From positions 32,136 through 96,135 of the forward strand of contig DASPMO010000054.1 in NCBI GenBank assembly GCA_035627015.1: a DNA stretch of 64,000 nt, written 5' to 3'. Within the stretch, counting starts at the first letter, position 1. Every line of letters starts with the position of its first letter. Shown in pieces: positions 1 to 49,621 of the stretch. Source of the DNA: Thermoanaerobaculia bacterium (GTDB lineage Bacteria > Acidobacteriota > Thermoanaerobaculia > Gp7-AA8). The notes beneath the pieces are model-generated. The model did no database searches and was not told the DNA's origin. It was given only the letters and a program-made list of their open reading frames with translations. Made by a program: the position numbers and the translations under genes.

Positions 1-104
1 TCGCTGACGGAGGTCTCGCCGCGGGCCAGCCGCGCCAGGATGGCGCGGCGCGTGGGGTCGGCCAGCGCGGCGAAGGTGGAGCTGAGGTGGTCTTGCTCAA
101 CCAT
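1..104 (-). CDS. ArsR/SmtB-family HTH transcriptional regulator (N-terminal part; gene continues beyond window start)
   Basis: Reverse-complement of 1-104 translates to MVEQDHLSSTFAALADPTRRAILARLARGETSVS, a classic ArsR HTH signature (ALADPTRRxIL). ATG at 104. Confidence 0.6.
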   Translation of the reverse strand, partial: MVEQDHLSSTFAALADPTRRAILARLARGETSVS

Positions 105-145: not shown

Positions 146-266
146 GCCGTCTGGAGTGCGGCAGCGCCAGCTGCCGCTTTCCATTGCGGCAGCCGCAGCT
201 GCCGCGGTGGGCGGAGGCTGGCGCCTCCGCATCAAAAGCGGCAGCTGGCGCTGCCGCACTCCACAA
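146..266. repeat. Family-A palindromic intergenic element, copy 1 (termini GGAGTGCGGCAGCGCCAGCTGCCGC ... GCGGCAGCTGGCGCTGCCGCACTCC)
   Basis: Roughly 120-bp element with 25-bp terminal inverted repeats. Near-identical termini recur at 31441-31530 and 51398-51528. Confidence 0.6.
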
Positions 267-268
267 CA

Positions 269-1482
<1,214 letters not shown>

Positions 1483-1486
<4 letters not shown>

Positions 1487-2223
1487 GCTGCTTCCTCCAT
1501 CCCCGCCAGGTCGGCCGCGGCGGAGCGGCGGTTCCTCACCGGCTCGTCGCGGCGGATGCTGCCGTCGCGCACCTCGACGATGCGCTTCGCGTAGGCCGCC
1601 ACTTCCGGCTCGTGCGTGACCAGGACGACGGTGATGCCCTGCTCGTTCAGCTCCTGAAAGAGCGCCATGACCTCGATGGTCGTGCGCGAGTCGAGGTTGC
1701 CGGTCGGCTCGTCTGCCAGGACGAGAGCCGGCTCGGTGACCAGCGCGCGTGCAATCGCGACGCGCTGCTGCTGGCCGCCCGAGAGCTCGCTCGGCTGGTG
1801 GTCGACGCGCTCGCCGAGCCCGACGCGCTCCAGCGCGGCGATGGCCAGCGCCTTCGTGTCGCGCTTCTTTCCGCTGCGGTCGTACAGCATCGGCAGCTCG
1901 ACGTTTTCCAGCGCGGTCGTGCGCGGGAGGAGGTTGAAGCCCTGGAAGACGAAGCCGATCTTCTGGTTGCGGATCGCCGCCAGCTCGTTCTTGCCGAGGC
2001 CGTCGACGCGCACGCCGTCGAGCTCGTACGAGCCGGCGGTCGGCGTGTCGAGGCAGCCGAGGAGGTTCATGAGCGTCGACTTGCCGGAGCCCGACGTGCC
2101 CATGATCGCCACGAGCTCGCCGCGTCCGATGGTCAGGTCGATGCCGCGCAGCGCGTGCACTTCGTTCGTGCCGCTGACGTACGTCTTTGTCAGGCCGCTG
2201 GTGTGGATGACGGCGTCGCTCAT
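1483..2223 (-). CDS. ABC transporter ATP-binding protein (MacB/LolD type)
   Basis: Walker [13 protein letters not shown] signature [15 protein letters not shown] and Walker [13 protein letters not shown]. Confidence 0.9.
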
Positions 2224-3458
2224 CAGAATCCCCCTCGGGGGCCGCGCTGCTGCTGCTGTCCGCCCTGGAACGGGTTGCTCGACGTCTCCGTCTGCGCCGC
2301 CTGCGGCTGGGCCGTGCCGGCGATGACCTGCAGTCCTTCCTTCACGGTGTCGCCACGGACCTCGGTGAACGAGCCGTCGGTGACGCCGGTGCGCACGCGG
2401 ATCGACTGCAGCTTGCCGTTCGCATCGACGAAGTAGAGCGTGCCTGTCATCCTGAGCGCAGCGAAGGACCCCCCGCGGTTGCGCGCTGCACGTGCGTCGG
2501 CAGGGGTTCGTTCGCCGTCTTCGCGGCTCACGATGACAGCGGGATCCGGCTTGAAGCGGAGCGCCGCGTTGGCGACCTTCAGCACGTCGTCGGCGGAGCG
2601 CGTCACGAACTTCACGCGCGCGGTCATGCCGGGGAGGAGCTTGCGCTCTGCGTTGTCGACGTTGACGACGACGGTGTAGTTGACGACGTTCTCGGTGGTG
2701 GCCGACTGCAGGCGCACCTGCTCGACGGTGCCTTCGAAGGTGTCGCGCGGCAGCGCCTGCACCGTGAACTTGACCTTCTGCCCTTCCTTGATTCCGGCGA
2801 TATCCCCCTCGCCGACTTTGGCCAGGATCTGCATCCGGGTGAGGTCGTTGGCGATGAGGAAGAGCTGCGGAGTGGAGAGGCTGGCCGCGACGGTCTGGCC
2901 GAGGTCGACGTTGCGCTCGACCACGACGCCGTCGATCGGCGCGTAGATGTTGGTGTACTCGAGGTTGCGCTTGGCGCGCTCGAGGGCCACCTGCGCCGAC
3001 TTCACGTTGGCGCGGGCGACGTCGGCCGACGAGTCGGTCATCTCGACTTCGCTGCGCGCGACGAGGCCGGCGGACGCGAGCTCGGCGTTGCGGTTGTACT
3101 CGCGCGCAGCCTGCCGCGCCTGCGCCTGGGCACGCTCGAGCGCGGCATAGGCGTCGGTGACGGCCTGCTGCTGCAGAGTCGGGTCGATGCGCGCGAGCAG
3201 CTGGCCCTTCTTCACCGTGTCGTTGAAGTCGACGAACAGCTCCGACACCTGGCCGGAGACCTGGGTGCCGACCTGGACGGTGCGGACCGCGTTGAGCGTG
3301 CCGGTCGCGGACACGCTCGCTTCGACATCACCGCGCTCGACGGCGGTGAACCGGTATGTGGTCGTCTCGCGCGCGAACGCCTGCCTGTGGACGAGCACGC
3401 CGACGACGGCCAGCACCGCGATGAGGGCAATGGCGATCGTTGTCTTTTTCTTTCTCAT
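2223..3458 (-). CDS. macA: Efflux transporter periplasmic adaptor subunit (HlyD/MacA family)
   Basis: Signal/TM anchor, coiled-coil and beta-barrel adaptor architecture. Stop/start abuts the ATPase gene. The start is taken at the second Met (MRKKKTT) because the first Met lies inside a conserved leader element. Confidence 0.8.
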
Positions 3459-3538
3459 GCGCTCTTCAACGAGGCCGAAGGTGCGCACACTTCAGAAAAA
3501 CGACGACCTGCACGCGGGTGTCATGAACTGCACGGCCA
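3459..3538 (-). promoter_or_regulatory. Conserved ~85-nt leader/promoter element, copy 1 (GTGCAGTTCATGACAC...TGAAGTgTGCGC...CCTCGTTGAAGrGCGCATG)
   Basis: Near-identical element upstream of the SLT gene at 10023-10105. The conservation runs right up to the start codon. Confidence 0.5.
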
Positions 3539-3632
3539 GACGTAGGTCGGGCTTCAGCCCGACTGGCTCTCGCGCCATCCGGCCTTCCCTGCAGACGGGC
3601 ACGCGGAGACGGGCTGAAGCCCGTCCTACGTC
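3539..3632. repeat. Family-B REP hairpin pair (ACGTAGGTCGGGCTTCAGCCCGAC ... GACGGGCTGAAGCCCGTCCTACGT)
   Basis: Two inverted copies of the 13-bp-stem/5-nt-loop hairpin. The second copy supplies the TAG stop of plsC (minus strand). Confidence 0.7.
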
Positions 3633-4345
3633 AGCGTGCTCATCGCCGCCACCGCTTCGCGCAGCCGTTCCGCGATCGCGACCGCCCCCTCTTTGTCGCT
3701 GTTGACGCCGGCGAACTGCAGCGGTTTCCCAATAACCAGCCGTAGCTTGCGCGGGCGGGGGATCCACTTCCCTTTCGGCCACGCCCGGTACGCTCCGTCG
3801 AGATAGCAGGGGACGACAGGCGTGCTCGTCCCGGCGGTGAGGAAGCCGATGCCGGGCTTGAACTTGCCGATCGCGCCGTCCGCCGTGCGCGTCCCCTCGG
3901 GAAAGAGGATGAGGATGTGGCCCGGCGCGTCGAGGAGCTGACGGCAGAGGGCGAGGCTCTGGCGCGGGTTCTCCTTGCGGTCGAAGGGCATGGCGTTGAC
4001 GACGATCGCGGAGAAGACGAGCTTGGAGAGGTTGGTGAAGAAGTAGTCGCTCGCCGCGGCGGGGAAGGCGCGGTGGATCTTGCGCAGCGGCAGCGCGGCC
4101 AGGAGCGCCGGCGCATCGAGATGGCTGCCGTGGTTGGCGACCATGACGAACGAGCCCTCGGACGGCAGGTTCTCACGGCCGACGATCTCCAGCCGGTGCC
4201 AGGCGCGCATCAGCAAACGGATGACGAGGTTCGTCAGCGACCGCGCGGCGTACACGAAGAGATCCGGATGCCGCGGAAAGTTCTTCAGCCGCTCGATCGG
4301 CGCCTGATCGAAGTCCTCGGTCGGCTGATAGCGCCACTCGTCCAT
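3626..4345 (-). CDS. plsC: 1-acyl-sn-glycerol-3-phosphate acyltransferase
   Basis: VMVANHGSHLDAPAL (HX4D acyltransferase motif) and FPEGTRT motif. The long N-terminal extension in the ORF track overlaps cdsA and is rejected. Confidence 0.8.
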   Translation of the reverse strand: MDEWRYQPTEDFDQAPIERLKNFPRHPDLFVYAARSLTNLVIRLLMRAWHRLEIVGRENLPSEGSFVMVANHGSHLDAPALLAALPLRKIHRAFPAAASDYFFTNLSKLVFSAIVVNAMPFDRKENPRQSLALCRQLLDAPGHILILFPEGTRTADGAIGKFKPGIGFLTAGTSTPVVPCYLDGAYRAWPKGKWIPRPRKLRLVIGKPLQFAGVNSDKEGAVAIAERLREAVAAMSTLT

Positions 4346-4347
4346 CT

Positions 4348-5271
4348 TCACAGTCCGCGGAAGTAGCGCACCATGTGAAAAAAGAGCGGTGCGACGTAGA
4401 TCAGCGAGTCGACGCGATCGAGCACGCCGCCGTGTCCCTCCAGCAGCGCGCCCATGTCCTTGATGCCGATGTCCCGCTTGATCACGCTGATGGAGAGGTC
4501 GCCGAGCTGGCTGCCGACGCCGACGATCACGCCGGCCAGCAGCAGCTCGCGCGTGCCGAGCTCGGGGAACGAGAAGCGCACCAGCCAGGGGAAGGCCATC
4601 GACACCGCGAACGCGCCGAGTGCCCCCGCCCAGGTCTTGTTCGGGCTGATGTTCGGGCGGAACTTGCGGCGGCCGAAGATCCGTCCGAAGGTGAACGCGG
4701 CGATGTCGCACAGCGGCACCGCGAAGAGGAGGTAGAGGAGGTAGCCGTACGCGTTGCGCGCGTTGGCCAGGAACGCGAGGTGGCCGAACATCCAGCCCAT
4801 GTAGATGAAGCCGAGCAGCGCCAGCGCGATCGGCTGCAACTGCCCCTTCGCGCGGTCGCGCGCGATCGGGATCATCAGGATCGCCGCGACGACGTACACC
4901 GGCAGCGCCATCAGCATGCCGTACCACCCCGGCTCGCCGGTGACGGGCGTGTCGATGTACGAGACCACTCCCACCGCGGCGATGCCGAGCAGCACGATGC
5001 CGGTCATCCACCAGTCGCGATAGAGGCCGGTGGCGCGGGCGAACTCGCTGAACGCGCCGAGGGCCAGCAGGGTGAAGAAGAGGATGGTGGTGAGGCGGCC
5101 GAAGTAGAGCGCGGTGAAGACGAGCGGGATGATGATCAGCCAGCCGCGATACGCCTTCCACGCGTGGTCGACGTTCTTTTTCAGCCCGAAGCGGAGCACG
5201 GCCAGCAAGGCCCCCGCGACGACGAGCAGGCCGACGAGCACGACGAGGTAGCTGCGAAAGACCGGATTCAT
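4348..5271 (-). CDS. cdsA: Phosphatidate cytidylyltransferase (CDP-diacylglycerol synthase)
   Basis: Polytopic membrane protein of 307 aa with the C-terminal CdsA signature region (SxxKRxxGxKDxGxxxPGHGGxxDRxDS: SVIKRDIGIKDMGALLEGHGGVLDRVDS). Confidence 0.9.
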   Translation of the reverse strand: MNPVFRSYLVVLVGLLVVAGALLAVLRFGLKKNVDHAWKAYRGWLIIIPLVFTALYFGRLTTILFFTLLALGAFSEFARATGLYRDWWMTGIVLLGIAAVGVVSYIDTPVTGEPGWYGMLMALPVYVVAAILMIPIARDRAKGQLQPIALALLGFIYMGWMFGHLAFLANARNAYGYLLYLLFAVPLCDIAAFTFGRIFGRRKFRPNISPNKTWAGALGAFAVSMAFPWLVRFSFPELGTRELLLAGVIVGVGSQLGDLSISVIKRDIGIKDMGALLEGHGGVLDRVDSLIYVAPLFFHMVRYFRGL

Positions 5272-5702
5272 CCGTACACCGATGATAGGACGAGCGCGGC
5301 GAGTTGTGCGATGACGGCGATGGCTGCCTGGACGATGAGCCGCTTCGCGCCGCGGGAGCGGTCGATCCAGTCGCGAGGCGCGTCTGGACCGGCTGAAGCC
5401 CGTCCTGCGTTCAGCATCCGCATCGCGCGAGGCGCGCTCGACGTAGGGCGGGCTTCAGCCCGCCCAAGCGCGCGGTCGAGCGCATCGGTCGCAATCCGCC
5501 CCGCGGCAACGTCGTCGAACAACTTGGCGTCGAGCGAGACGCGGAAGCAGAAGTAGATCGCCGCGACACCGAGGACGATCGCCGCAATGGCCACCTGGAA
5601 CGCGGCGACGATCGTCAGCCCGACGGCGAGGCCGGAGAGGCTCGCCGCGGCGCGGAGGAGCCGCGCGGTGACGATGACGTGTGCGCGCTCTTCGTCAGTC
5701 AT
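5268..5702 (-). CDS. Small membrane protein (hypothetical) carrying an in-frame family-B REP insertion
   Basis: 144 aa. Its stop overlaps the cdsA start (ATGA). The REP-derived peptide GRAEARPTSS...GRASAGP sits in a loop. Confidence 0.5.
   Translation of the reverse strand: MTDEERAHVIVTARLLRAAASLSGLAVGLTIVAAFQVAIAAIVLGVAAIYFCFRVSLDAKLFDDVAAGRIATDALDRALGRAEARPTSSAPRAMRMLNAGRASAGPDAPRDWIDRSRGAKRLIVQAAIAVIAQLAALVLSSVYG
5386..5470. repeat. Family-B REP hairpin pair (degenerate), intragenic
   Basis: GGCTGAAGCCCGTCCTGCGT ... ACGTAGGGCGGGCTTCAGCCCGCCC inside ORF 5268-5702. The reading frame is kept. Confidence 0.6.
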
Positions 5703-6930
5703 GATGCAGCACGATCGAGGGACGCGCCTTGCGCACCATCGCCGCGGCCTCGTCGAACGAGGCGGCGCGGCGCGTCGTCAGCAGCCATTCCACGACCGCG
5801 CGGGCGCTGCGCGAGTAGCCGAGGGCGCAGCAGACGAGGAGTGGCTTCGGCGCCGACTCGATGGCCTGTGCCGCGGTGCGCAGGGCGTCCGCATTCGGGA
5901 CGGTGAGATCGAGCACGGGGACGTTGCGATAGGCAGGGTGTTCCGCGCACGACAGCTCGGCGCAGAGATCGACGATCGCGGCGAACGGCTCGCCCGACGT
6001 CGGGATGCGTCCGATCCACACACCGTCGCGCACTTCCGCCGCGCCGGGATGGTTGCGCGTCCAGAGGCGCGAGTTCAGCCACGCCGCGCCGAGGTACGGC
6101 GCGAGCAGCGCGCGGGCGCCGAGGCTCAACCGGCCGCTGGACGATTTCTGGAAGCCGCGCTCGCCGACGGCGGCGTAGATCAGCGCCACGATCGCCAGCG
6201 AGGCCGCGGGCCAGCACATCCAGAGCCACGCGCCGCCGAGAGACGCCACCGCGGTGCAGAGCGCGGCGCCGGCCGCGTAGAACAGCGCCAGGCGGCGGCG
6301 TCTCCGGTCGCGCGTGAACGACAGGCGCCGCAGCGGCGACTCTTCCTCATCCGGCAGGATCCAGAGCGCGAGGAAGCCGACCGCGGCACCGGTGGGGAGA
6401 TCGATGAAGTGGTGTTGATACGTCGTCAGGATCGATACACCGATCAGTGCCATCCACCCGTGGAACAGCCAGCGCATGCGTCGCAGATGCGCGGCGAAGC
6501 GGACCCACACCACGATGAGCAGGGCGATGTGCAGCGAGGGCGCCTGGTTGAACGGCTTGTCGAAACTGGTCAGGGCGGTGAAGAGCGCGCCGAACACTCC
6601 GTCGGACTGCGGCCGCTCGAACGAGAAGCGCAGCGGGAAAGCGATGAAGCAGGCGATCGAGACGAGTTGCGCGAACAGCAGCCGCTGCCCATGGCGATCG
6701 ACTTCGCGGCGCGTCGTGCAGACGAAGAACGAGATCGCGTACAGCAGGTCGATCGACCAGTACGGCACGATGGTCCACGGCACGAAGGGAATGTGCCGTT
6801 CCCACGCGAAGGCGACCACGCCGACGTCCGCCCGCGTGCTGGCCAGCCAGTTCGCGAAGCCGTAGCTGGCGAAGAAGAACGGGCCGAGAAAAGCCAGCCA
6901 CGCGGCGGCGCGCTTCCAGGGACGCTTCAC
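5695..6930 (-). CDS. Membrane protein with SMS/IPC-synthase-like (PAP2_C) catalytic motifs fused to a C-terminal dual-specificity (PTPMT1-like) phosphatase domain
   Basis: GTG start in a GTGA overlap with the upstream gene. The polytopic N-terminal domain carries ...APSLH...(about 40 aa)...YQHHFIDLPTG (an SGH ... HYTxD-like H/H/D triad). The C-terminus has VCCALGYSRS, a CX5R(S) PTP/DSP P-loop. Confidence 0.6.
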   Translation of the reverse strand: MKRPWKRAAAWLAFLGPFFFASYGFANWLASTRADVGVVAFAWERHIPFVPWTIVPYWSIDLLYAISFFVCTTRREVDRHGQRLLFAQLVSIACFIAFPLRFSFERPQSDGVFGALFTALTSFDKPFNQAPSLHIALLIVVWVRFAAHLRRMRWLFHGWMALIGVSILTTYQHHFIDLPTGAAVGFLALWILPDEEESPLRRLSFTRDRRRRRLALFYAAGAALCTAVASLGGAWLWMCWPAASLAIVALIYAAVGERGFQKSSSGRLSLGARALLAPYLGAAWLNSRLWTRNHPGAAEVRDGVWIGRIPTSGEPFAAIVDLCAELSCAEHPAYRNVPVLDLTVPNADALRTAAQAIESAPKPLLVCCALGYSRSARAVVEWLLTTRRAASFDEAAAMVRKARPSIVLHHD

Positions 6931-8663
6931 GCCCGCACCGATAGGGAGACGGTGAAGATCCCCCAGTCGTCGATGCGCTGCTCCAGCTTGCGGAAGCCCG
7001 CGCGCTCCACGAGCTGGTCCATCTCCCCCTGCGAGCGGCGCCGCATCACCCACGCCTCGCCGCCGCGGTGGCTGGTCAGCGCGCGCGCGATCAGCTCGAG
7101 CTGCGGGTGCCACGGCTGGCCGGTATAGACGAGGTATCCCCCCGCCGGGACGGCATCGGCGATCCCCGCGAGCGAGCGCGCCACGAGGTCGTTGTCGCCG
7201 AAGAGCTCGTAGAGTCCGGAGACGATGGCCAGCGTCGGACGCGGGGTCACCGCGGCGAGGGAGGCGCGGTCGAAGGCGTCGCCCTGCACGAAGCGCGCGA
7301 CGTCACCCAGTCCCTTCGACTGGATCATGGCCGCGCCCTGGCGCACATTCAGCTCGCTGTAATCGCGCAGGAGGATCGAGTCGGGACGCGTGGCCGCGCC
7401 GTTCAGCGCCTCGAGCACGTAGCGTCCGTGTCCGGCGGCGACGTCCATCACATGTACCGGCTGGCCCGCCTCGCGCAGCTTCTCCATCGCCAGGCGGATC
7501 AGCTCCTCGACGTGCACCTTGCGCCGGCGGATACCGCGCCAGCCGATCGACTGCAGGTAGTTCCTGTCGATCACGCGGCCCAGGAGCGAGGGGCTGTCGG
7601 GCTGGTTGCGGTAGACGTAATCGAGCGTGCTGCCGGAGTCGAAGCCCGTCTCGTGGCCGAGCTTCAGGCCGTTCGACAACGCGCCGCCGAGGCGCATGCC
7701 CGCGCGCGTCGCCGCCCAGTACAGGCCGCGCGGCGAGAACGGCGAGAGCGGCGTGGCCAGTTCGTCCGCCTCCTGCCGCGTCGGGCCGGTCCGGTGCGAC
7801 TGCGTGAGGTCGACGGTGACCGGCGGCTCGGCGAAGCGCTTTTCGATGAATGTACGCGCGAGCTGCACCGCTTTGGCGCGCTCTTTTTCGCCGAGGGTGT
7901 CGTGGTAGAAGCCGGGCAGCACGTGCCGCTCCTTGACCGTGCTGCCGAGGCGGTTGAAGAAGTCGTGCTGCGGCTTGTGGTGCACGACGAAGTCGGAGCC
8001 GGAGATGAGCAACTGCAGCGGCACGGTGATGGCCTGCGCGTCGGCCACCACCCGCTCCGCGGCCGCGTACAGCTCCAGGAGGATGTTGACGGAGATGTCG
8101 CGCGTGATGAGCGGGTCGGCGTCGAACGACTCGATGCGCCGCGGGTCGTGGGTGAGGAACTTCGACTTCACGTAGCTCTTCACCACGAAGTTGCCGCGCA
8201 GCTTCTGCATCAGCGCCAGCCCCGGCCGCGCCAGCGGGACGTACAGCTTGACCTTGAACGCGGGCGAGGCCAGGACGGCGCAGCGCACCTTCGGCGCGTA
8301 GTCGTGCAGCCACGTCGCGGCCAGCACGGCGCCGACGCTCTGCGCGATCACGGCCACGTTCTCGATGCCGTGCGTGCCGGCGATCCCGCCGACGAAGTCG
8401 TTTACGTCGCGCACGGAGGTGGCGAAGCTCGGGCTGTGTCCGCGCTCGCCGGGCGAGCGGCCGTGGCCGCGCGCGTCCCACGCGTAGAAGGCATACCCGG
8501 GAAGATCCAGCTCGTCGATGAGATGCGCCATGCGTCCGGAGTGCTCGTGCCCGCGGTGGAACAGCACGATGGCGCCTTTGGCATTCTCGGCCGGCCAGTG
8601 CCGGTAGAACAGCTCCACGCCGTCGAACGTGCGGAAGCTCTTCTCCTCAGACGGACGATTCAC
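6927..8663 (-). CDS. Bifunctional alpha/beta-hydrolase (lysophospholipase/monoglyceride-lipase-like) - class I SAM-dependent methyltransferase
   Basis: N-terminus: HRGHEHSGR...AQSVGA nucleophile elbow and DTLGE. C-terminus: VMDVAAGHGRY SAM-binding motif I. 578 aa. Overlaps both neighbouring genes. Confidence 0.75.
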   Translation of the reverse strand: MNRPSEEKSFRTFDGVELFYRHWPAENAKGAIVLFHRGHEHSGRMAHLIDELDLPGYAFYAWDARGHGRSPGERGHSPSFATSVRDVNDFVGGIAGTHGIENVAVIAQSVGAVLAATWLHDYAPKVRCAVLASPAFKVKLYVPLARPGLALMQKLRGNFVVKSYVKSKFLTHDPRRIESFDADPLITRDISVNILLELYAAAERVVADAQAITVPLQLLISGSDFVVHHKPQHDFFNRLGSTVKERHVLPGFYHDTLGEKERAKAVQLARTFIEKRFAEPPVTVDLTQSHRTGPTRQEADELATPLSPFSPRGLYWAATRAGMRLGGALSNGLKLGHETGFDSGSTLDYVYRNQPDSPSLLGRVIDRNYLQSIGWRGIRRRKVHVEELIRLAMEKLREAGQPVHVMDVAAGHGRYVLEALNGAATRPDSILLRDYSELNVRQGAAMIQSKGLGDVARFVQGDAFDRASLAAVTPRPTLAIVSGLYELFGDNDLVARSLAGIADAVPAGGYLVYTGQPWHPQLELIARALTSHRGGEAWVMRRRSQGEMDQLVERAGFRKLEQRIDDWGIFTVSLSVRA

Positions 8664-9237
8664 GCAGCCCTCCTCGGATTCGATTGACGATCGTGACCGC
8701 GACCAGCGCGGCGATGCCCCACAGGATCGCGTCGTGCAGCGGCCAGCGCAGCGCCACGGCGATGGCCAGCAGGGAGAAGACGAACGCGCGGTCGCTCTTT
8801 CCCATCGGCCCGTCGTAGCGCCGGGCGGCGCCGGTCATCACCGCCACGACGCCGGTCATCTCCGACAGCGAGGCGGCGAAGATGACGGCCGAGACGCTCC
8901 ACCAGGTGAACGGCGCGACGAACGCGAACGGCAGGTAGAGCGCGGCGTCGGAGACGACGTCGGTCAGCTCGTTCAGGTACGCGCCGAGGTGCGACTTCTG
9001 ACCGAACTCGCGCGCCAGCATGCCGTCGACGGCGTTCAGGCCCATGCGCACGAACATCCACAGCGGCACGAGCGCGAACCACTGCCGCGGCGCGCTCACG
9101 AGGAACGCGCCGAGGGCGATGGAGACGAGGCAGGCGAAGACCGTGACCTGATTCGCCGTCACGCCGAGGGCCTGCAGGCGCCGCACGAGCGGCCGCAGGA
9201 ACGCCTGAAACCGCGTTTTCAGGGTGTAGATCGACAT
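8647..9237 (-). CDS. CDP-alcohol phosphatidyltransferase (PgsA/PIP-synthase-like, 196 aa)
   Basis: NAVDGMLAREFGQKSHLGAYLNELTDVVSD matches D-G-x2-A-R-x8-G-x3-D-x3-D. About 6 TM segments. Confidence 0.85.
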   Translation of the reverse strand: MSIYTLKTRFQAFLRPLVRRLQALGVTANQVTVFACLVSIALGAFLVSAPRQWFALVPLWMFVRMGLNAVDGMLAREFGQKSHLGAYLNELTDVVSDAALYLPFAFVAPFTWWSVSAVIFAASLSEMTGVVAVMTGAARRYDGPMGKSDRAFVFSLLAIAVALRWPLHDAILWGIAALVAVTIVNRIRGGLRESSV

Positions 9238-9260
9238 CGGACGTGAGCGCGATTATGCAC

Positions 9261-10022
9261 TCAGGCGTTGATGTCGAATCCGTACTTTTCCGGCTCCTTG
9301 GCGATGCGCGCGGCGGCGATCATCAGCGGCACGTAGTCGGCCGTCTCCTGCGGGAGCAGCTCGGCGATGGCGTAGTAGTCATCCTCCGACCCCTTCTCCG
9401 AGCCGGTCACGCTGCGCATGATGCGTCCGACGCGATTCTCGCCGGTGTTGTACGCGGCCGCGGCCAGGTACCAGGAGCCGAAGCGGTCGTACAGGTCGCC
9501 GAGATACGACAGCGCGGCCTCGGTCGACTTTTCCGGATCGGTGCGCTCGTCGACTTTGCGGTCGACGGTCAGGCCGTAGCGCTCCGCGGTCGGCTCGATG
9601 AACTGCCACAACCCCTTCGCCTTCGCGGCCGACGTTGCCACGGGGTTGAAGCCCGACTCGATCATGGCCAGGTAGACGAGGTCCTGCGGCATCCCGCGCG
9701 CGGCGAGCTTCTCGCTGATCATCGGCGCGTACTTCGGCATCCGCTTCAGGAAGACCGTGAAGTCGTCGCGGCCGTCGGTCTGGAAGAACTCGACCCAGCG
9801 ATCGACACGCGGATGGTCGAGGTTGGGGAGATCCCACCCGGTCGTTTGCTCGGGTGGAGCGGCGGCATGCAGGCTACCGACCGCCACCGGCGCGCTCTCG
9901 ACCACGGCCGGCGGGCTGAAACCCGCCGCTCCACCGGGCCGATTCCCGAGTCCGGCGACGAACGACGCGCCGAACAGCGCCGCGAGGGCAAGGGGGATTG
10001 CTGCGTCTTTCGTCTTCATCAT
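9261..10022 (-). CDS. Lytic transglycosylase, SLT domain (MltD/Slt-like), secreted
   Basis: Signal peptide MMKTKDAAIPLALAALFGASFVAG. SLT motifs MIESGFNP...GLWQF...AAYNTGENRV. Confidence 0.8.
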   Translation of the reverse strand: MMKTKDAAIPLALAALFGASFVAGLGNRPGGAAGFSPPAVVESAPVAVGSLHAAAPPEQTTGWDLPNLDHPRVDRWVEFFQTDGRDDFTVFLKRMPKYAPMISEKLAARGMPQDLVYLAMIESGFNPVATSAAKAKGLWQFIEPTAERYGLTVDRKVDERTDPEKSTEAALSYLGDLYDRFGSWYLAAAAYNTGENRVGRIMRSVTGSEKGSEDDYYAIAELLPQETADYVPLMIAAARIAKEPEKYGFDINA

Positions 10023-10105
10023 GCGCCCTTCAACGAGGGCCGCGAGGCGCATACTTCACCTGGGTAACGATATGCACGAACGTGTCATGAACTGCACCGG
10101 AGTGA
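10023..10105 (-). promoter_or_regulatory. Conserved ~85-nt leader/promoter element, copy 2
   Basis: GTGCAGTTCATGACACGTTCGTGCAT...TGAAGTATGCGCC...CCCTCGTTGAAGGGCGCATG aligns nearly base-for-base with 3459-3538. Confidence 0.5.
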
Positions 10106-10502
10106 GCCCCGATCTCTGTCTGCGGCGGTTCATCGGCGACGGTGCCGAGCCGGTCACGACCGCCGACCTGCGCATCCGCCATCTTCTCGCCGCGATTGCC
10201 GCGGGACGCTGGCCGGAGCTTCGTGTTGTGACGAAGGGAGAAGGCGAGGCCATGCGGAGGGCGGACGACGAGTCGCGCCTCGACGCGGGCGAGCGCGAGC
10301 TGCTGGAGCTGCTGGCGGCCGGCGACTTCGAGAGCGCGCTGATGTATTACTGGCAGACGCTCGGGAACTTCTCGTCGCTCGTGCGGGAGCGCGCGATCCA
10401 TCGCGGGGCGCGCCTCTGCAGAGCGCTCAATGACGGTCACGATCCTGACCGGATCTCCGAGCAGTTGCGCGACTCGCCTGGCGCGATGGCCGTCGTCAAC
10501 GA

Positions 10503-10889: not shown

Positions 10890-11003
10890 GGATGACATGA
10901 TGGGCGACTCGTTGCGCGCGAGCGCGCTGGATCAGTGGGAGACGGTGCGCAGGCTGCGCGCGATAGTTGAAGCAGAGCCGGAGCGTTTCATCCTCCGGCC
11001 GCG

Positions 11004-33890: not shown

Positions 33891-34204
33891 AGCCCGTCCT
33901 GGTCCTGACCACCACCGGCGCGGACTTTGACGCGCGCGCCCTCGCGCATGCTCTGGTCGAGGCGCGCGTGGCCGCCTGTGTGAACATCGTCGAGCGCATC
34001 CACTCGGTCTACCGGTGGGAAGGCCGCGTGGCCGATGACGCCGAGCAGTTGCTGATCATCAAGACCAGCGACGAGCGGGTCGCGGCGCTGCGGGAGGAGC
34101 TGTTCAGGCGGCATCCCTACGACGTGCCGGAGTTCGTGGTCGTGCCGGTCGCGGAGACGTCAGACGCCTACGGCGCGTGGCTGCTTTCGTCGGTAGCGCC
34201 GTAA
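33887..34204 (+). CDS. cutA: Divalent-cation tolerance protein CutA
   Basis: 105 aa ...VLTTTGADFDARALAHALVEARVAACVNIV...YRWEG...; TTG start overlapping the previous stop. Confidence 0.75.
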   Translation: MKPVLVLTTTGADFDARALAHALVEARVAACVNIVERIHSVYRWEGRVADDAEQLLIIKTSDERVAALREELFRRHPYDVPEFVVVPVAETSDAYGAWLLSSVAP

Positions 34205-36535
34205 CACAAAAAACACCACCACCCCGAGGATCGTCACCAGGGTGATGTTCCGCCCGCGCGTGAACGCCTCCGGGTGAAAGACGACGCGCAGGTGGTGCTT
34301 CCCCTTCGGCACGAAGACGCCGATGAAGGCGTGATTGGCGTAGTGCGTCTCGACGCGTTTGCCGTCGATGTACGCGCGCCAGCCCGGCCACTTCGTGTCG
34401 GAGATGACCACCCACCCGTCCAGGTCCATGGTGGCGTCGATCTCGTAGGCCAGCCCATCGCGCCGCGTGACCAGCGTGCCGGGGCCGTTGGAGATCTGGT
34501 GCGCCGGGTACTGCGGCACGGCGATCCAGGCCGTGTCGGCGAAATCGGTGGTGAAGCGCATGCCGCGCAGCACGGCCTCGTCGGTGCGCTCGTAGCGGAT
34601 GTGGCGCGGCACGAACGCGCGCGGCACGACGCGCGTGTTCTCGAACAGGCGGTGATGGCGGTCCTGCAGGACGAGCTTCCACTGCTCGTCGGGCTGCTGC
34701 TCGAGCGAGCCGATGGCGTACTTGACGTTGAGGAAGGAGAGGAACGTCTTCGAGCGGTCCTCGACGATGTTGTAGGAGACGGGCATCGCGCGCGACCAGA
34801 GCGGATACGTCTCGTGGAGGCGCTGGAAGGTCATGGCCTCGTAGCCGCGCGGGTCCTCCAGGCCGTAGAGGGCCGCCGTGTCGGGAACGAGCGCGTAGTG
34901 CATCCCCACGACCCGGAACGGCGTGGCCGGATCGTCCTGCAGATACTGGAAGACGGGGATGGCCGGATAGAACGCCTTCTCCGGCAGCGCCGGATACATC
35001 CTCCCGTCCTCCCACACCCGCTGCACGAGCACGAGCGCGAGGATCCAGCGCGGGTCTCTCCGGAACAGGAGCAGCGCGCCGAGGGCCACCAGCGGAACCA
35101 GCTCCGCCAGCGTGAGCGAAGCGATGACCGCCGGATCGACCCCCGAGCGGATCTCCGAGTCGCGCAGCAACGCCGCCCCGATCGCCAGACCAATCGCCAA
35201 CAACGCAACGGGTGCCAAACGTAGGACGGGTGCTAAACGTAGGACGGGCTTCAGCCCGTCCGGTCGGGCTGAAGCCCGACCTACGCCGTCCACCGCAAAC
35301 GCCGCCAGCACGCAAAGCGCGAACACCGCCGCGAACCCCAGCCGCTCATTCAAAGCAATATCGAACAACGGCAGCGCATGCAGCAGGTCCCCCACCGGCC
35401 AGGCGTTCAGCCCCGCCAGCGCCATGAACGCGAAGAACCCGAAGAAGAACCACGTGTCCCGCCGCCGGTACAGCAGCCCGAGCAGCGCCAGGGCCAGCAC
35501 CACGCTCCCCACCCGCATCGGGTACGCGTCCCATTTCGGCGCGTGCCCCCCTCCCTCCATCCGCCCCCCCGCGAACGGGAAGAGCGACGTCGCCGCGCGC
35601 GCGCCGACCGCCTCCGGCGGCACGTCGAACGGCGCGGCGGCGTAGGCGTCGCGGCGGAAGCGGTACTCCATCGTGTGCGGCGTGACGAAGAAGAACGGCA
35701 GCAGCGAGATCGCGGTCAGCAGCAGCGCCAGCACGCCGCAGAGCGCGGCCAGCGCGATCGTGCGCGGCCGCTTCGTGACGATGACTTCATAGAGGCCGTA
35801 GATCGAACCGACGAAGACGATGTGCAGCACCGACTCCGGATGCCCGGCGAAGACGACCAGCACGAGCGCCAGCGTGAGGAGCACCGCCGCGCGCACATTG
35901 GTCTCGCGCACGACCAGGCGCACGCCGAGGAAGACCAGCGGCAGGAACACCCAGATCCGCCCCAGCGGCCAGGCCACGAAGAGCGCGAGCAGCGCGCAGA
36001 ACGTGTAGCCGGCCGCGGCGATGAGCGCGGCCGTCTCGCCGCAGCCGAGGGCGCGGACGAAGGCGAAGGTGAACAGCGCGCAGAGGAAGAAGGTGAAGGC
36101 GGCGCCGAAGGTCAGCGCCTGCGCGTGCGGGAGGAGCAGGCCGAGGAGCTGGACCGCGTCGTAAGGGGCGGCCTGCATGTTCGCGGCGAGGATCGTCCCG
36201 CAGAGAAGGTACGGGTTCCAGACCGGCCATTCACCCTTGGCCAGCGCCTGCCGCACCGCGCTCTGCCACGGCATCATCTGCATGTAGAGGTCGGAGAGGC
36301 CGGGGTGGTACGGCTTCTCCACGCCGTAGTCGCGCGCGTAGTTGTTGAGCGGCTCGGAGAGGAACGGCAGGTCGATCGGGGCGTAGACGCGGCCGGTGAG
36401 CAGGGCCCGCCCGGTGAAGCAGAGCGGCAGGAGGATCAGCACGATCGCCGCCGTCCGGCTGACGGGCGCGACGAAGCGGCGCCAGACGGCGATCAGGACG
36501 AGCGTGGCGGCCGCGTAGAGAACGATCGCAAGCAA
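34160..36535 (-). CDS. Large polytopic membrane protein, YfhO-like (putative membrane glycosyltransferase family); tandem paralog 1
   Basis: 791 aa. About 13 TM helices in the N-terminal ~480 aa plus a C-terminal soluble domain. TTG start. Contains an in-frame family-B REP (RASARPDGLKPVLRLAPVLRLAP). Confidence 0.6.
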   Translation of the reverse strand: MLAIVLYAAATLVLIAVWRRFVAPVSRTAAIVLILLPLCFTGRALLTGRVYAPIDLPFLSEPLNNYARDYGVEKPYHPGLSDLYMQMMPWQSAVRQALAKGEWPVWNPYLLCGTILAANMQAAPYDAVQLLGLLLPHAQALTFGAAFTFFLCALFTFAFVRALGCGETAALIAAAGYTFCALLALFVAWPLGRIWVFLPLVFLGVRLVVRETNVRAAVLLTLALVLVVFAGHPESVLHIVFVGSIYGLYEVIVTKRPRTIALAALCGVLALLLTAISLLPFFFVTPHTMEYRFRRDAYAAAPFDVPPEAVGARAATSLFPFAGGRMEGGGHAPKWDAYPMRVGSVVLALALLGLLYRRRDTWFFFGFFAFMALAGLNAWPVGDLLHALPLFDIALNERLGFAAVFALCVLAAFAVDGVGRASARPDGLKPVLRLAPVLRLAPVALLAIGLAIGAALLRDSEIRSGVDPAVIASLTLAELVPLVALGALLLFRRDPRWILALVLVQRVWEDGRMYPALPEKAFYPAIPVFQYLQDDPATPFRVVGMHYALVPDTAALYGLEDPRGYEAMTFQRLHETYPLWSRAMPVSYNIVEDRSKTFLSFLNVKYAIGSLEQQPDEQWKLVLQDRHHRLFENTRVVPRAFVPRHIRYERTDEAVLRGMRFTTDFADTAWIAVPQYPAHQISNGPGTLVTRRDGLAYEIDATMDLDGWVVISDTKWPGWRAYIDGKRVETHYANHAFIGVFVPKGKHHLRVVFHPEAFTRGRNITLVTILGVVVFFVLRRYRRKQPRAVGV
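35215..35288. repeat. Family-B REP hairpins (1.5 copies), intragenic and in-frame
   Basis: CAAACGTAGGACGGGTGCTAAACGTAGGACGGGCTTCAGCCCGTCCGGTCGGGCTGAAGCCCGACCTACG. Confidence 0.6.
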
Positions 36536-36628: not shown

Positions 36629-38737
36629 TTACCTGGAACGCCGGGCACCGCGAGCAACCAGCAACACAGCAACCAGCAACGCTACCGCGGAGATCGCCCG
36701 CCCCCGCGTGAACGACTCCGGCAGATACACCAGCCGCACGCGATGCGCGCCCGCCGGCACGTACACGCCGAGGAAGGCGTGGTTGGCGTAGTGCGGCCGC
36801 ACGGCGCGGCCGTCGACGTAGGCGCGCCAGCCCGGCCAGTGGGTCTCGGAGATCACCACCCACCCCGCGCGCTGCATGGTGGCCTCGAGCTCGTACTCGA
36901 GTCCCCTGCGGCGGATGGAGACGCGTCCCGCCCCGTTGGGCGCGTCGTGCGGCTCGTATGCGTCCGTCTCAATCCAGACCGTGGAAGCGAACTCGGTGGC
37001 GTTCTTCATCTCCTCGGCCGCGTTCCCGCGCACGTAGCGCACGCGCTCCGGGACGAACGCGCGCGGCAGGACGCGCGGGTTCTCGAGCAGGCGCGTGTCG
37101 CGGTCGGCGGCGCGGACGCTCCAGCCGGGCGGCACGGCCACGTTCCCGTGCGCCAGCGCGTAGCGGATATTGAGAAAGGAGAGAAACGGCCGCGAGAGGT
37201 CGTCGACGGCGTTGAACCAGGCCCGCTGATAGCGTGACCAGAGCGGATACGTCTCGTAGAGGCGCACGAAGGTCATGGCCTGGTAGCCGCGGGCATCCTC
37301 CAGCTCGTAGAGGGCGGCGTTGTTCGGGATGAGCGCGGAGCCGGCGCCGGTGAAGCGCGCGTCCTTGGGGATGCTCGCCAGGAGCGGCACGCGCGGGTAG
37401 AAGACGCGCTTGTCGAGGGCGGGATAAAAGTCGCCGTCCTCGTTCACCCGCTCCAGGAGCACGAGCGCGAGCAGCGCGATGGCGAAGCCGCGCTTCGGAA
37501 TGCGGTCGACGGCCATCGCCGCCAGCATGGCCATGGCGAACGCCGCCGCGAACGCCAGCCGCTCGTTGATGGCGATGTCGAACAGCGGCAGCGCGTGCAG
37601 CGCGTGCGCGACCGGCCACGTCCCGAAGGTGGCCAGGAGGCAGACGACGGCCATGACGCCCCACCCCCAGGCCCTCCTCTGAAACAGCGCCGCGACCGCG
37701 AGCAGCATCACCACCACCCCCACGCGCGCCGACAGCGGATCCCATCCCGGCCTGTTCGACTCCCCGTGCGAGAAGGGGACGAACGTCTTCACCATCCGCT
37801 CCCGCCGCACCTCCGGCGAGACGATCACGTCGTAGCTCGTCGGTGCATACAGCTCCCGCCGGATCTTGTACTCCAGCGTCTCCGGCGCCGCCTCCGCAAA
37901 CGGCAGCAGATAAATCGCCCCCAGCGCCAACGCCATGAGCCCCGCAAAGAACGCGGAGCGTGCTGAACGTAGGTCGGGCTTCAGCCCGACCCCATACACC
38001 GCCCCCACGGCCACCACATGCAGCACCGACTCCGGATGCCCGGAGAAGATCACCAGCACGAACGCCGCGGTGAGCAGCACCCACCGCCGCTCCCGCACCG
38101 CGAACAGCACCAGCGGCAGCCAGGCCCACGTCCGCGCCAGCGGCCAGCCGACGAAGAAGGCCATCATCCCGCAGAAGGTGAACCCGGCCGCCGCCACCAG
38201 CGCGGCGATCTCCTTCAGCCCCGTCGCACGCGCGAACGCGAACGTGAAGAACGCCGCGATGAAGAAGGTCATCGAAGCGCCGAACGTCAGCGCGTCCGGC
38301 AGCGGCAGCAGAAATCCGAGGAGCTGCAGCGGGTCGTACACGGCCGGCTGTGCCGCCGCGGCCAGGATGTCGCCGTTGAGGATGAACGGATTCCAGAGCG
38401 GCCATTCCCCCTGCGACCATGCCCAGCGCACCGCCTTCTGCCACGGGATGATCTGGCAGTGCAGGTCCGAGAGCGCGATCTCGTGCGGCCGCGCCACCCC
38501 GAAGTCGCGCGCATAGTCGCGCAACGGCTCCGCCGTGAACGGCAGGTCGATCGGCGCGTAGACCCGCCCCGTGAGCATCGCCTTCCCCGTGAAGACGAGC
38601 GGCAGCGCGATCAGCGCGATCGCCGCGGCCACGCTCACGCGCTGGACGAACCGGCTCCAGAGGAAGGAGACGGCCGCGGTGGTGATCAGGTACAGAGCGA
38701 GGGCCAAAGCGTGCGGGAGTCTAGACGAGAGGCTCAC
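36629..38737 (-). CDS. Large polytopic membrane protein, YfhO-like; tandem paralog 2
   Basis: 702 aa with blocks collinear to paralog 1 (WNPFILNGDILAAAAQPAVYDPLQLLGFLLP vs WNPYLLCGTILAANMQAAPYDAVQLLGLLLP). In-frame REP (GLKPDLRSARSA). Its start codon lies inside octamer repeat array A. Confidence 0.6.
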   Translation of the reverse strand: MSLSSRLPHALALALYLITTAAVSFLWSRFVQRVSVAAAIALIALPLVFTGKAMLTGRVYAPIDLPFTAEPLRDYARDFGVARPHEIALSDLHCQIIPWQKAVRWAWSQGEWPLWNPFILNGDILAAAAQPAVYDPLQLLGFLLPLPDALTFGASMTFFIAAFFTFAFARATGLKEIAALVAAAGFTFCGMMAFFVGWPLARTWAWLPLVLFAVRERRWVLLTAAFVLVIFSGHPESVLHVVAVGAVYGVGLKPDLRSARSAFFAGLMALALGAIYLLPFAEAAPETLEYKIRRELYAPTSYDVIVSPEVRRERMVKTFVPFSHGESNRPGWDPLSARVGVVVMLLAVAALFQRRAWGWGVMAVVCLLATFGTWPVAHALHALPLFDIAINERLAFAAAFAMAMLAAMAVDRIPKRGFAIALLALVLLERVNEDGDFYPALDKRVFYPRVPLLASIPKDARFTGAGSALIPNNAALYELEDARGYQAMTFVRLYETYPLWSRYQRAWFNAVDDLSRPFLSFLNIRYALAHGNVAVPPGWSVRAADRDTRLLENPRVLPRAFVPERVRYVRGNAAEEMKNATEFASTVWIETDAYEPHDAPNGAGRVSIRRRGLEYELEATMQRAGWVVISETHWPGWRAYVDGRAVRPHYANHAFLGVYVPAGAHRVRLVYLPESFTRGRAISAVALLVAVLLVARGARRSR
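37966..37994. repeat. Family-B REP hairpin, intragenic and in-frame
   Basis: GAACGTAGGTCGGGCTTCAGCCCGACCCC. Confidence 0.6.
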
Positions 38738-38850
38738 AGGCTCATAGGCTCACAGGCTCATAGGCTCACAGGCTCATAGGCTCATAGGCTCACAGGTATA
38801 CAGGAGCTCCTGTGAGCCTGTGTGCCTGTGAACCTGTGAGCCTCGACCGA
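38725..38850. repeat. Octamer inverted array A: (CTCAyAGG)x8 ... center ... (CCTGTGAG)x4
   Basis: Tandem 8-bp units arranged head-to-head, able to form a long periodic hairpin. Confidence 0.7.
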
Positions 38851-38997
38851 CGCCAGTTCCTCCAAGCCGCCGCCCTCGCCGCGGCGGGGGGGTGAAGGGT
38901 GGCAAACATCTGAGGCCCGGCGCGCCCGGCATCGCGAAGGTCGAGCTCAGCGACGACGGCGGAAAGCGTGGCATTCCGTCGAGGTCGAGGTGACGGC

Positions 38998-39296
38998 ATG
39001 ATCCGCCTCCTGCTCTTCCTCCTGGCCGCGCTGCCGCAGCCCTCCACGCAGTTCAAGCAGCTCCCGCCCGGCGCCGGGAAAGCCCAGGTCGAGGCCGCCT
39101 GCTACCAGTGCCACGCCGCCGACCTCCTCGCCAGCAGCGCCTCACCGAAAAGCAATGGCTCGCCTCGGTCGAGAAGATGATCCGCTGGGGCGCCGACGGC
39201 CCGCCGAAAGACAAGGACGTCATCGTCCGCTACCTGGCGAAGCACTACGGGCCGGGGAACAAGTTCACGCCGACGAAGATCGCGCCGGTGAAGTAG
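38998..39296 (+). pseudogene. Small c-type cytochrome (CxxCH) disrupted by a single-base frameshift (or sequencing error)
   Basis: MIRLLLFLLAALP...AACYQCHAADLLASS ends at about 39130. The reading frame continues in another frame as QRLTEKQWLASVEKMIRWGADGPPKDKDVIVRYLAKHYGPGNKF. Confidence 0.5.
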
Positions 39297-39362
39297 GCGC
39301 ATAGGCACATAGGCTCATAGGAGCCCCTGTGAGCCTATGAGCCTATGAACCTATATCCCTAC
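39295..39362. repeat. Octamer inverted array B: (CATAGGCn)x3 ... (CCTATGAG/CCTGTGAG)x4
   Basis: Same CTCATAGG/CCTATGAG unit as arrays A and C. Together with A it flanks the cytochrome c pseudogene. Confidence 0.7.
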
Positions 39363-39416
39363 ATCCCGTAGAACGGGAACACGATCCCCCCGCCCGGAGT
39401 TAGATTGGTTCCTCAC

Positions 39417-42291: not shown

Positions 42292-42545
42292 GCGGTTCCA
42301 CGCGCGTGTGTCCCGCGGGATCACGCGTGCATCCGCGGGAAACACGCGTGTATCCGCGAGGAACACGCGTGCATTCGCGGGACACAGGCGTGCGTCCACG
42401 GAAAACACGCGTGTGTCTTACGGGAAACACGCGTGTGTCCTTGGAAAACACGCATGTGTCCACGGGAAACACGCGTCTGTCCGCGGGAAACGCGCATGTG
42501 TCCCGGAGGGCACACGCACGAGGCTTGCGGGACACGACGCTGAAA
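42292..42545. repeat. Tandem array of about 10 copies of a 21-bp double-palindrome unit CACGCGTG-TG-TCCCGCGGGA-AA
   Basis: Direct head-to-tail copies with point variants. No intervening spacers, so not a CRISPR array. Confidence 0.8.
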
Positions 42546-47493: not shown

Positions 47494-47547
47494 CGTAGGG
47501 CGGGCTTCAGCCCGCCCATGGACGGGCTGAAGCCCGTCCTACGTTGT
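47492..47547. repeat. Family-B REP hairpin pair, intergenic
   Basis: GACGTAGGGCGGGCTTCAGCCCGCCCATGGACGGGCTGAAGCCCGTCCTACGTT starts at the TGA of the VWA gene. Confidence 0.7.
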
Positions 47548-47677
47548 CCGGCATGACACGTGAACCAAGCGGCCTCGCGTGCCTGAACGCGGCTCACCGC
47601 TTTTCCCCGAGGCGCCCAAGCGCCATCGCATCCACGGCGGTCTGAGAACCGAGCGGCAGGAGCACATCTTCACGTGG

Positions 47678-49187: not shown

Positions 49188-49210
49188 GGCGGGCTTCAGC
49201 CCGCCCGAAG
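49182..49210. repeat. Family-B REP hairpin
   Basis: GACGTAGGGCGGGCTTCAGCCCGCCCGAAG. Confidence 0.6.
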
Positions 49211-49621
49211 CAAAAATGAGTGTGAAGGCACTCAGAATCGATTGGCGCCGAGGAAACGCCGGCTGCGGCCGTGCTGCGGTTTGATGCGCCACGCTGAATG
49301 TTTGCTCGCTCGGCGCTGACGTTTGCTCCGCGCGTGCCGCGCGTTCATGGCGTCGAGATCGTTCCAGCTCGAGTCGCGCTGGACAAATGGAGCGAAGCTG
49401 CCCGGGAACAGCACAAGTCCATCAACTTGCAGCACGTCCCGGGCAGAATTTTGCTTTGAAACACCGCCGTCCAGCTGCCGGCGAGCTGGAAATCCCTCGG
49501 CGCCAGCAGGTGCCGGCTCGAAGTCATCATCCTTTTGCTCCGGCGGAACAAAAATTCAGCGCCGCCGAGCAAGAGACAGCAGTGGCGGCAATCCGCGAAT
49601 CTCGCGGCACCGTCCGTCTAG

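Follow-up and report, generated by a model that had tools for sequence, protein, structure and literature searches.

A shared element before the macA-like and SLT genes

The 64-kb stretch of Thermoanaerobaculia DNA analysed here (the window) carries two copies of a 78-nt element on its minus strand, one directly before the MacA-like gene of an efflux operon and one directly before the gene for an SLT lytic transglycosylase. On comparison with related genomes, each copy is probably a complete activator-dependent promoter module with LytTR-type docking repeats and not a transcribed leader. The copies lie at 3533..3456 and 10097..10020 and agree at 57 of 78 positions in an ungapped alignment; copy 1 ends at the ATG of the MacA-like gene (3458..3456) and copy 2 at the ATG of the SLT gene (10022..10020). 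The identical positions form four blocks, namely GTGCAGTTCATGACAC, CGTGCA, TGAAGTRTGCGC and CCTCGTTGAAGRGCGCATG, and identity in the stretches between them is at random level (~6/25 in the three variable stretches). Directly upstream of the two copies the flanks are likewise at random level (13/60), and downstream 25 of 60 positions agree, in a region where both genes encode Lys/Arg-rich signal-anchor N-termini.

The shared element does not have a chance origin. The 16-mer GTGCAGTTCATGACAC occurs exactly twice in the window (0.30 occurrences are expected at ≤3 mismatches), the 19-mer preceding the ATG also occurs twice, against 0.04 expected, and with a position weight matrix derived from relatives the copies score 56 and 60 bits, where the next best site in the 64 kb has -18 bits. 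A preliminary description of this DNA had reported a near-identical element before the macA-like and SLT genes, and both copies are confirmed with coordinates that differ by 3-8 nt; the variable N12-18 spacer that it placed within the element is wrong because the spacers are equal in length in both copies and the alignment is ungapped. The parts of the two copies, all on the minus strand, are as follows.

3518..3533, distal repeat block GTGCAGTTCATGACAC of copy 1 (module positions 1-16), an exact 16-mer that is conserved in 83 modules
3502..3513, proximal repeat GTGCAGGTCGTC of copy 1 (module positions 21-32), 20 nt after the distal repeat
3488..3493, -35-like GAAGTG of copy 1 (module positions 41-46), family form GAAAC/GAAAG
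3468..3471, -10-like CGTT of copy 1 (module positions 63-66), 17 nt after the -35-like pentamer
3456..3458, ATG of the MacA-like gene and predicted transcription start of copy 1, 9 nt after the -10-like element, with a C before the ATG and without a spaced Shine-Dalgarno sequence
10082..10097, distal repeat block GTGCAGTTCATGACAC of copy 2, an exact 16-mer
10066..10077, proximal repeat GTGCATATCGTT of copy 2, from the alignment and the family consensus
10052..10057, -35-like GAAGTA of copy 2, from module comparison
10032..10035, -10-like CGTT of copy 2, from module comparison
10020..10022, ATG of the SLT gene and predicted transcription start of copy 2, from start-codon and Shine-Dalgarno comparison

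Conservation and gene associations in relatives

The preliminary description took the two genes to be functionally unrelated, which does not stand because SLT and macA belong to the same operon in the closest Thermoanaerobaculia relatives. The SLT protein of the window has a counterpart with 100% identity in a metagenome-assembled genome of Thermoanaerobaculia (Acidobacteriota). In the two most closely related loci (L001 and L004), whose permeases are 90-93% identical to that of the window and whose operons as a whole are 78-93% identical to the macA-ABC-permease operon of the window, SLT is followed directly, as part of one operon, by the genes for the membrane fusion protein (MFP, MacA-like), the ABC ATPase and the MacB permease, the stop codon of one gene overlapping the start codon of the next. 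Upstream of SLT both loci carry a gene for an LTXXQ (Spy/CpxP-like) protein and a divergent gene pair for a PF06580 histidine kinase and a REC-LytTR regulator. The first half of the element occurs twice in L001, before SLT and in the intergenic region between kinase and LTXXQ, and in L004 it stands before LTXXQ; through these partial copies two blocks (A and B) were recognised as a direct repeat in which TGCAnnTCGT starts 20 nt after the start of TGCAGTTCATG.

We then scanned GTDB species genomes and JGI metagenomes with the pattern GTGCRRYTCATGACAN6TGCA, the resulting sequence set comprising 30 GTDB-genome loci, 57 metagenome loci, the loci obtained earlier and the window. Among 99 matches in total, 65 (53 of them unique) stand beside kinase, regulator, LTXXQ, SLT or MFP genes, and where the taxon of these could be identified it is always Acidobacteriota and mostly Thermoanaerobaculia. 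The other 34 come from unrelated taxa, show no extra feature except in L054 and L060, and are about as numerous as a 17.5-base pattern would give by chance. When the loci obtained were scanned with the weight matrix, 31 further unique modules came up; they do not match the pattern, yet their consensus is the same, so it was not the search pattern that created the conservation. This gives 83 unique modules in 58 loci, 40 of which hold two or more; by downstream gene they divide into LTXXQ (43 modules), MFP (31), a secreted 244-aa protein (5), SLT or SLT-MFP (3) and contig end (1). A kinase or regulator gene lies within the stretch obtained in 42 of the 58 module-bearing loci, and many of the others are short contigs.

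This genome itself contains a third module. An ENA contig found through the permease of the window (L092) is identical to the window at two 60-nt probes (window 1-60 at L092 11427 and window 10901-10960 at L092 527), reaches 9.8 kb past the left edge of the window and together with it covers ~74 kb of the genome. The third module, at L092 18776, lies upstream of an LTXXQ gene, 7.3 kb outside the window edge, and reads ATGCAACTCATGACAG-N4-GTGCAGTTCATG...CGAAAC-N17-CGTC, with the canonical -35/-10 form. The preliminary description had proposed a genome scan for the motif, which now yields this third copy as well as dozens in relatives, and the comparative data essentially bear out its suggestion of a shared regulator operator plus promoter in an envelope-stress regulon. 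P0124, the one candidate examined among homologues of the L004 regulator, was considered as the LytTR regulator of this genome and set aside, as it comes from a different sample and a different gene context.

Two further observations concern the surroundings of the modules. Just upstream of the third module, L092 18510-18775 consists of three to four tandem units of ~46 nt with degenerate half-sites (GGCAGTCCACG, GGCAGTTCACG), flanked by inverted GTTGGCGGTTGACGG... repeats, and these half-sites may be extra low-affinity sites for the regulator. In L054 (621-1355, minus strand), L060 and L013 (5633+) a module precedes the gene for the secreted 244-aa protein, which is rich in Asn, Gln, Arg and Gly and has no Pfam match; by its promoter this protein is a further predicted member of the regulon, with a function not assigned by Pfam.

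As a whole the regulon would comprise the LTXXQ periplasmic protein, the MacAB-type pump with or without SLT as the first gene of its operon, and in some genomes the secreted protein. From this gene set we infer the kind of signal, as the regulon resembles an envelope-stress or detoxification response.

Direct repeats and the candidate regulator

Two direct repeats occupy module positions 1-32, namely GTGCAGTTCATGACA and, with its start 20 nt further on, GTGCAnnTCGT; the family consensus of the proximal one is cGTGCAgcTCGTt. Outside the search pattern, CG at positions 20-21 and TCGT at 28-31 show conservation that is confined to the true set. An 11-nt spacer lies between the 9-nt cores, GCAGTTCAT and GCAGnTCGT, in both window copies as well as in the consensus of a 50-module set, and the repeats end 8 nt before the -35-like element, a distance that is fixed in every module. 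Published LytTR sites consist of two direct or inverted repeats of 9-11 nt that are 11-13 nt apart, as in YpdB, GGCATTTCAT (PMC4847170), and by this comparison the present repeats have the LytTR architecture, at the short end of the spacing range. The core of the AlgR site is CCGTTCGTC (PMC4064291), and the repeat CAGTTCGTG found here has GTTCGT in common with it. The distal repeat block is our candidate for a high-affinity LytTR half-site.

The only regulator that consistently co-occurs with the module is a REC-LytTR protein with its PF06580 kinase, encoded by a divergent gene pair that usually adjoins the module; the regulator of L001 has the domain order REC+LytTR and matches Pfam LytTR with an E value of 1.6e-20. 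In the mechanism we propose, a dimer of this LytTR-family response regulator would dock on the repeats at module positions 1-32.

The proposed core promoter

The second conserved part of the module resembles a promoter of the extracytoplasmic function (ECF) sigma factors. In the 50-module set GAAA stands at module positions 41-44, and the pentamer 41-45 is GAAAC or GAAAG in most modules, position 45 being C in roughly half and G in most others; the variant GAAGT is seen only in the two window copies. Exactly 17 nt after this pentamer, (C/T)GT(C/T) occupies positions 63-66 in 47 of the 50 modules, both window copies included. GAAA(C/G) and (C/T)GT(C/T) are outside the search pattern and are conserved only in the true set. 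ECF promoters have AAC in the -35 and CGT in the -10 element (PMC5758882), and for SigH of M. tuberculosis the elements are GGAAYA and G-11 T-10 T-9 on either side of a stringent 17-bp spacer (PMC6411747). GAAA(C/G)-N17-(C/T)GT(C/T) resembles such a promoter, the -10-like element and the rigid spacer having the form that these criteria predict, and positions 41-46 and 63-66 would act as ECF-type -35 and -10 elements. A search of the whole window for GAAAC-N17-CGTY gave no match, against 1.0 expected, so there is no other promoter of that exact form in the 64 kb.

Start codons and the predicted transcription start

The two main classes of module differ in what follows the -10-like element. In the macA/SLT class the ATG is at module position 76-79 in 18 of 20 modules, that is 9-12 nt after the -10-like element, and these 18 have no Shine-Dalgarno sequence at usable spacing; the exceptions, L035 and L076, are longer by ~18 nt, among them GGAGG or GGAG at 5-7 nt from the ATG. 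Of the LTXXQ class, 27 of 30 modules have a GGAG-containing Shine-Dalgarno sequence (AAGGAG in 19) 5-11 nt before the assigned start, and the remaining three starts are probably mis-assigned. If the geometry is that of SigH, then +1 would fall on the C-A of C-ATG (module position 75-76), which would make the macA and SLT messages leaderless and leave most of the 78 nt untranscribed. The macA and SLT mRNAs, including both of the window, are thus probably leaderless or nearly so. This bears on the annotation of the SLT start, which has been called at three different codons and stands differently in public records, with 252 aa at NCBI (P0001, from the next ATG) and 263 aa at ENA (from an upstream ATG inside the promoter). 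The promoter model favours a start at ATG 10022, the upstream in-frame ATG being probably promoter DNA, and the annotation is corrected to that effect.

The preliminary description also considered a cis-regulatory RNA leader. As a riboswitch, attenuator or translational hairpin it would block the start codon. RUGCGC (46-51) is able to pair with GCGCAU (72-77), a segment that contains the AUG, in each of the window copies, and short fragments fold at -15.1 and -17.7 kcal/mol. These folds, however, reach z-scores of only -2.1 and -1.3, and folding the full 96 nt gives -1.35 and +0.19. The pairing is formed in 26 of 54 cells (48%) across nine other modules with this spacing, where slid controls give 13-21, so the hairpin is not kept in relatives; RNAalifold, applied to these in line with the check that the preliminary description had suggested, finds no consensus structure, and in an Rfam scan of the window the sole match is a tRNA. 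Furthermore, modules of the LTXXQ class share positions 1-66 only and then continue into unrelated leaders, and the predicted transcription start lies at the ATG. We regard an RNA leader as highly improbable.

It is barely tenable that an N-terminal extension (M/V-R-x-x-x-L-V-E-x-R-M) is encoded by the 30 conserved nt ahead of the ATG, beginning at an RTG at module position 46. Both window copies do have such an in-frame start, which one gene caller took for SLT (263 aa), but a start codon with an open frame at this position is found in only 6 of 15 modules of the same spacing, on which ground we reject the extension. In L001 its frame is closed by a stop after three codons, both window copies have an in-frame TGA directly upstream of the position-46 start, and nucleotide conservation runs 45 nt further upstream into sequence that is not capable of coding.

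The 5′ untranslated regions of the LTXXQ class (examples are L007 3958+, L025 2963-, L010 4803- and L032 202+) keep complementary segments before the Shine-Dalgarno sequence, CTGGCAAC...GCCAG in a long class and TTGTCT...AGACA in a short class, and a small conserved RNA hairpin is possible there.

Alternative regulators and sigma factors

Several points weigh against the reading of the module as a LytTR- and ECF-dependent promoter. The LytTR regulator is assigned to the repeats entirely through gene neighbourhood, and neither a histidine kinase gene nor a LytTR gene is present in the window plus the extra 9.8 kb of L092 (~74 kb); within the 64-kb window tblastn likewise found no homologue of the kinase, LytTR or LTXXQ proteins. 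The 20-nt phasing, with an 11-nt spacer between 9-nt cores, is at the short end of what has been published for LytTR sites. As the -35-like element ~40% of modules have GAAAG and both window copies have GAAGT, forms without the canonical AAC of ECF promoters. A tblastn search with E. coli RpoE yielded, over all loci obtained, a single ECF-like gene, which lies in L035 at 5 kb from the motif; the window has none, though the sigma factor could be unlinked. Lastly, GAGG or GGAGG stands 1-2 nt ahead of the ATG in several macA/SLT modules, which could mean a very short leader rather than none.

The missing LytTR pair would be explained if the operator were bound by a different regulator, either an unlinked factor or the neighbouring ArsR-type protein that the preliminary description had put forward as a candidate, as an ArsR/HTH_5 gene does follow the permease. 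This gene is, however, downstream of the permease, past a terminator-like hairpin (257..238), and heads an AHSA1/DoxX group of its own. The called-gene tables for L001-L004, the loci screened in this respect, list no ArsR-type gene, whereas the kinase or LytTR regulator gene recurs in the majority of module-bearing loci, as counted above. ArsR-family proteins, moreover, generally bind inverted repeats and not direct repeats with a 20-nt phase. A binder other than this LytTR regulator is very unlikely.

In a second alternative the repeats are again the operator of a response regulator, but the core promoter is read by the housekeeping or another non-ECF sigma factor, GAAA and GTC are contacts of the activator or of RNA polymerase, and the message has a short leader. 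The frequent lack of AAC, the lack of a linked ECF sigma gene and the purine-rich GAGG or GGAGG just before some ATGs are all compatible with this. Against it, a sigma-70 promoter scan at both copies and over 200-10300 returned no matches, and neither copy has a TTGACA/TATAAT-like pair; the 17-nt spacing and the GT dinucleotide, both invariant, are hallmarks of ECF stringency (PMC6411747); and the Shine-Dalgarno-like runs, at 1-2 nt from the ATG, are too near for ribosome binding. We consider a non-ECF sigma factor unlikely, though less remote than a different binder, and continue with the ECF-type core.

History of the two copies

The preliminary description noted that its view would fail if the similarity came from a recent local duplication extending into coding sequence. 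At its N-terminus MacA matches its orthologues in the relatives L001 and L004 and is not derived from SLT, so the shared sequence stops at the ATG; for the same reason we rejected the possibility that the SLT signal peptide was duplicated onto MacA. That the likeness is a mere trace of recent duplication without function is scarcely plausible. The window copies are each other's best match, it is true, and have GAAGT in common to the exclusion of all other modules. Their differing positions, however, cluster in the three variable stretches, where identity is no better than random, and the same blocks are kept in 83 modules. At unselected positions the identity of copy to copy (0.64) is no higher than that to the orthologous promoters of L038 (0.63) and L085 (0.61), the mean over all pairs being 0.50, so the likeness of the window copies is mostly constraint at the level of the family.

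A duplication did nevertheless probably take place within this lineage, since GAAGT is shared by the window copies alone and the LTXXQ module of the same genome has GAAAC; the event would be old enough for the unconstrained positions to have randomised. An ancestral SLT-macAB operon would have been split in this genome, with SLT now at the head of a seven-gene operon and macAB under a module of its own, either because the phospholipid cluster described below was inserted into SLT-macAB or because an SLT-headed unit was placed in front of macAB. With a copy of the module at each half of the split operon, both halves would remain under the same control.

We tentatively propose, as a possibility that we would stop short of calling probable, that a LytTR regulator acts together with an ECF-type sigma factor at a rigid 76-nt cassette that fires on the start codon (leaderless), and that this defines an undescribed envelope-stress regulon of Thermoanaerobaculia (Spy-like protein, MacAB, lytic transglycosylase), in which the cassette was duplicated at the operon split and the phospholipid cluster brought under stress control.

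Genes and repeats of the window

The operons that start at the two copies are given below, all genes on the minus strand. For the operon of copy 1 the Pfam matches are HlyD_D23 (E 8e-25), ABC_tran, and MacB_PCD with FtsX, and a terminator scan places the terminator-like hairpin 257..238 3′ of the permease gene. The first gene of copy 2 matches SLT (E 1e-29).

238..3458, operon of copy 1, from Pfam and the terminator scan: macA-like gene (2223-3458), ABC ATPase (1483-2223) and MacB-type permease (269-1486)
3626..10022, predicted seven-gene operon of copy 2 with SLT first, from Pfam and the gene calls in L092
9261-10022, SLT lytic transglycosylase
8647-9237, CDP-alcohol phosphatidyltransferase
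6927-8663, hydrolase-methyltransferase (hydrolase-Methyltransf_20 fusion)
5695-6930, PAP2/DSP phosphatase
5268-5702, 144-aa open reading frame
4348-5271, CDP-diglyceride synthase
3626-4345, acyltransferase

In the run of seven genes from SLT to acyltransferase the genes overlap or are separated by gaps of at most 24 nt, and the terminator scan found no convincing terminator between them; we infer that SLT and the six phospholipid-cluster genes form a single operon under copy 2. The six-gene cluster of phospholipid type (3626-9237) is thus apparently co-transcribed with SLT from a stress-type promoter. No such cluster lies near a module in the other loci fetched, which makes this linkage particular to the present genome among the loci sampled.

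Between the acyltransferase stop and copy 1, at 3535..3636, stands a pair of repetitive extragenic palindromic (REP)-like units (repeat families D4 and D9; no strand assigned), which marks the upstream limit of the duplicated module. Such units (ACGTAGGnCGGGCTTCAGCCCGnCC and its complement), often in inverted pairs, number at least 17 copies in the 64 kb and lie at the following positions.

3535-3569, 3599-3636, 5378-5415, 5436-5470, 35232-35291 and 37962-37996, REP-like units
47488-47549, 49177-49211, 53906-53965, 56056-56125, 61060-61133 and 62917-62973, REP-like units

Other repeats of the window are arrays of 8-nt tandem units (CCTATGAG/CCTGTGAG) that stand head-on with arrays of the complement at 38736-38851, 39293-39376 and 57644-57792 (families D1, D2 and D6), and a tandem repeat of ~21 nt at 42294-42505 with units like GGGAAACACGCGTGTrTCCGC (family D8). 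The adjacent blocks ~34200-36400 and ~36650-38630 are 70-78% identical over several hundred bases each (families D3, D7, D10, D15 and D16) and are probably a tandem duplication of paralogous genes.

Comparison with known systems

To our knowledge the transcription signals of Acidobacteriota are poorly characterised, and a literature search that combined LytTR with LTXXQ, or Thermoanaerobaculia with two-component systems and efflux, found nothing on a LytTR/LTXXQ/MacAB regulon. The module provides a phylogenetically well-supported operator and core promoter, with a probable leaderless start, for an uncultured soil class, and assigns to an uncharacterised kinase/LytTR pair a small putative regulon of LTXXQ protein, MacAB-type pump, lytic transglycosylase and secreted protein. 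It also illustrates how control may be retained after an operon split, through a promoter copied up to the start codon. As a definition of a regulon for an uncultured soil lineage of Acidobacteriota it is useful, its signature being clear but fairly ordinary.

In its logic the regulon resembles BaeSR/CpxAR of E. coli (spy, cpxP, mdtABC, acrD), two-component systems that co-regulate an LTXXQ-family protein and an efflux pump. Here too an LTXXQ (Spy/CpxP-like) protein and a pump belong to one regulon, but this is an analogy and not homology of the regulators, as those of E. coli are of the OmpR family, with different sites and an RND pump, whereas the pump here is a MacAB-type ABC transporter.

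AlgR of P. aeruginosa works with the ECF sigma factor AlgU at the envelope-related algD promoter, which is a partial precedent for the combination proposed here. The AlgZ(FimS)/AlgR system also resembles the present one in having a PF06580-type kinase with a LytTR regulator and a GTTCGT core (PMC4064291). AlgR sites are, however, scattered, often far upstream or inverted, with no fixed tandem pair (PMC4064291), while the geometry here is rigid and the target genes are others.

The module is similar to the LytTR promoters AgrA P2/P3, YpdB-yhjX, ComE and PlnC/D in that two imperfect direct repeats of 9-11 nt stand just upstream of the core promoter, some two helical turns from each other, and in the regulator and membrane kinase being encoded next to a target gene; the repeat core GCAGTTCAT also resembles that of YpdB, GGCATTTCAT (PMC4847170, PMC4227749). 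It differs from them in its phasing (20 nt here versus 21-22 nt), in a core promoter that is ECF-like here and sigma-70-like there, in its host (Acidobacteriota), in its envelope targets in place of quorum-sensing, bacteriocin and carbon-scavenging genes, and in that the binder here is a predicted one. With ECF promoters (SigW of B. subtilis, TGAAAC-N16-CGTA, and SigH, GGAAYA-N17-GTT) it shares GAAAC, the 17 nt, CGTC/CGTT, and a spacing and a GT that are both invariant (PMC5758882, PMC6411747), and unlike them it is often GAAAG, is GAAGT in the window, and has an upstream activator site, which is atypical for ECF promoters. Rather than a new mechanism, the module is a combination of known kinds of element, namely a LytTR-type activator site, an ECF-like core and a predicted leaderless start.

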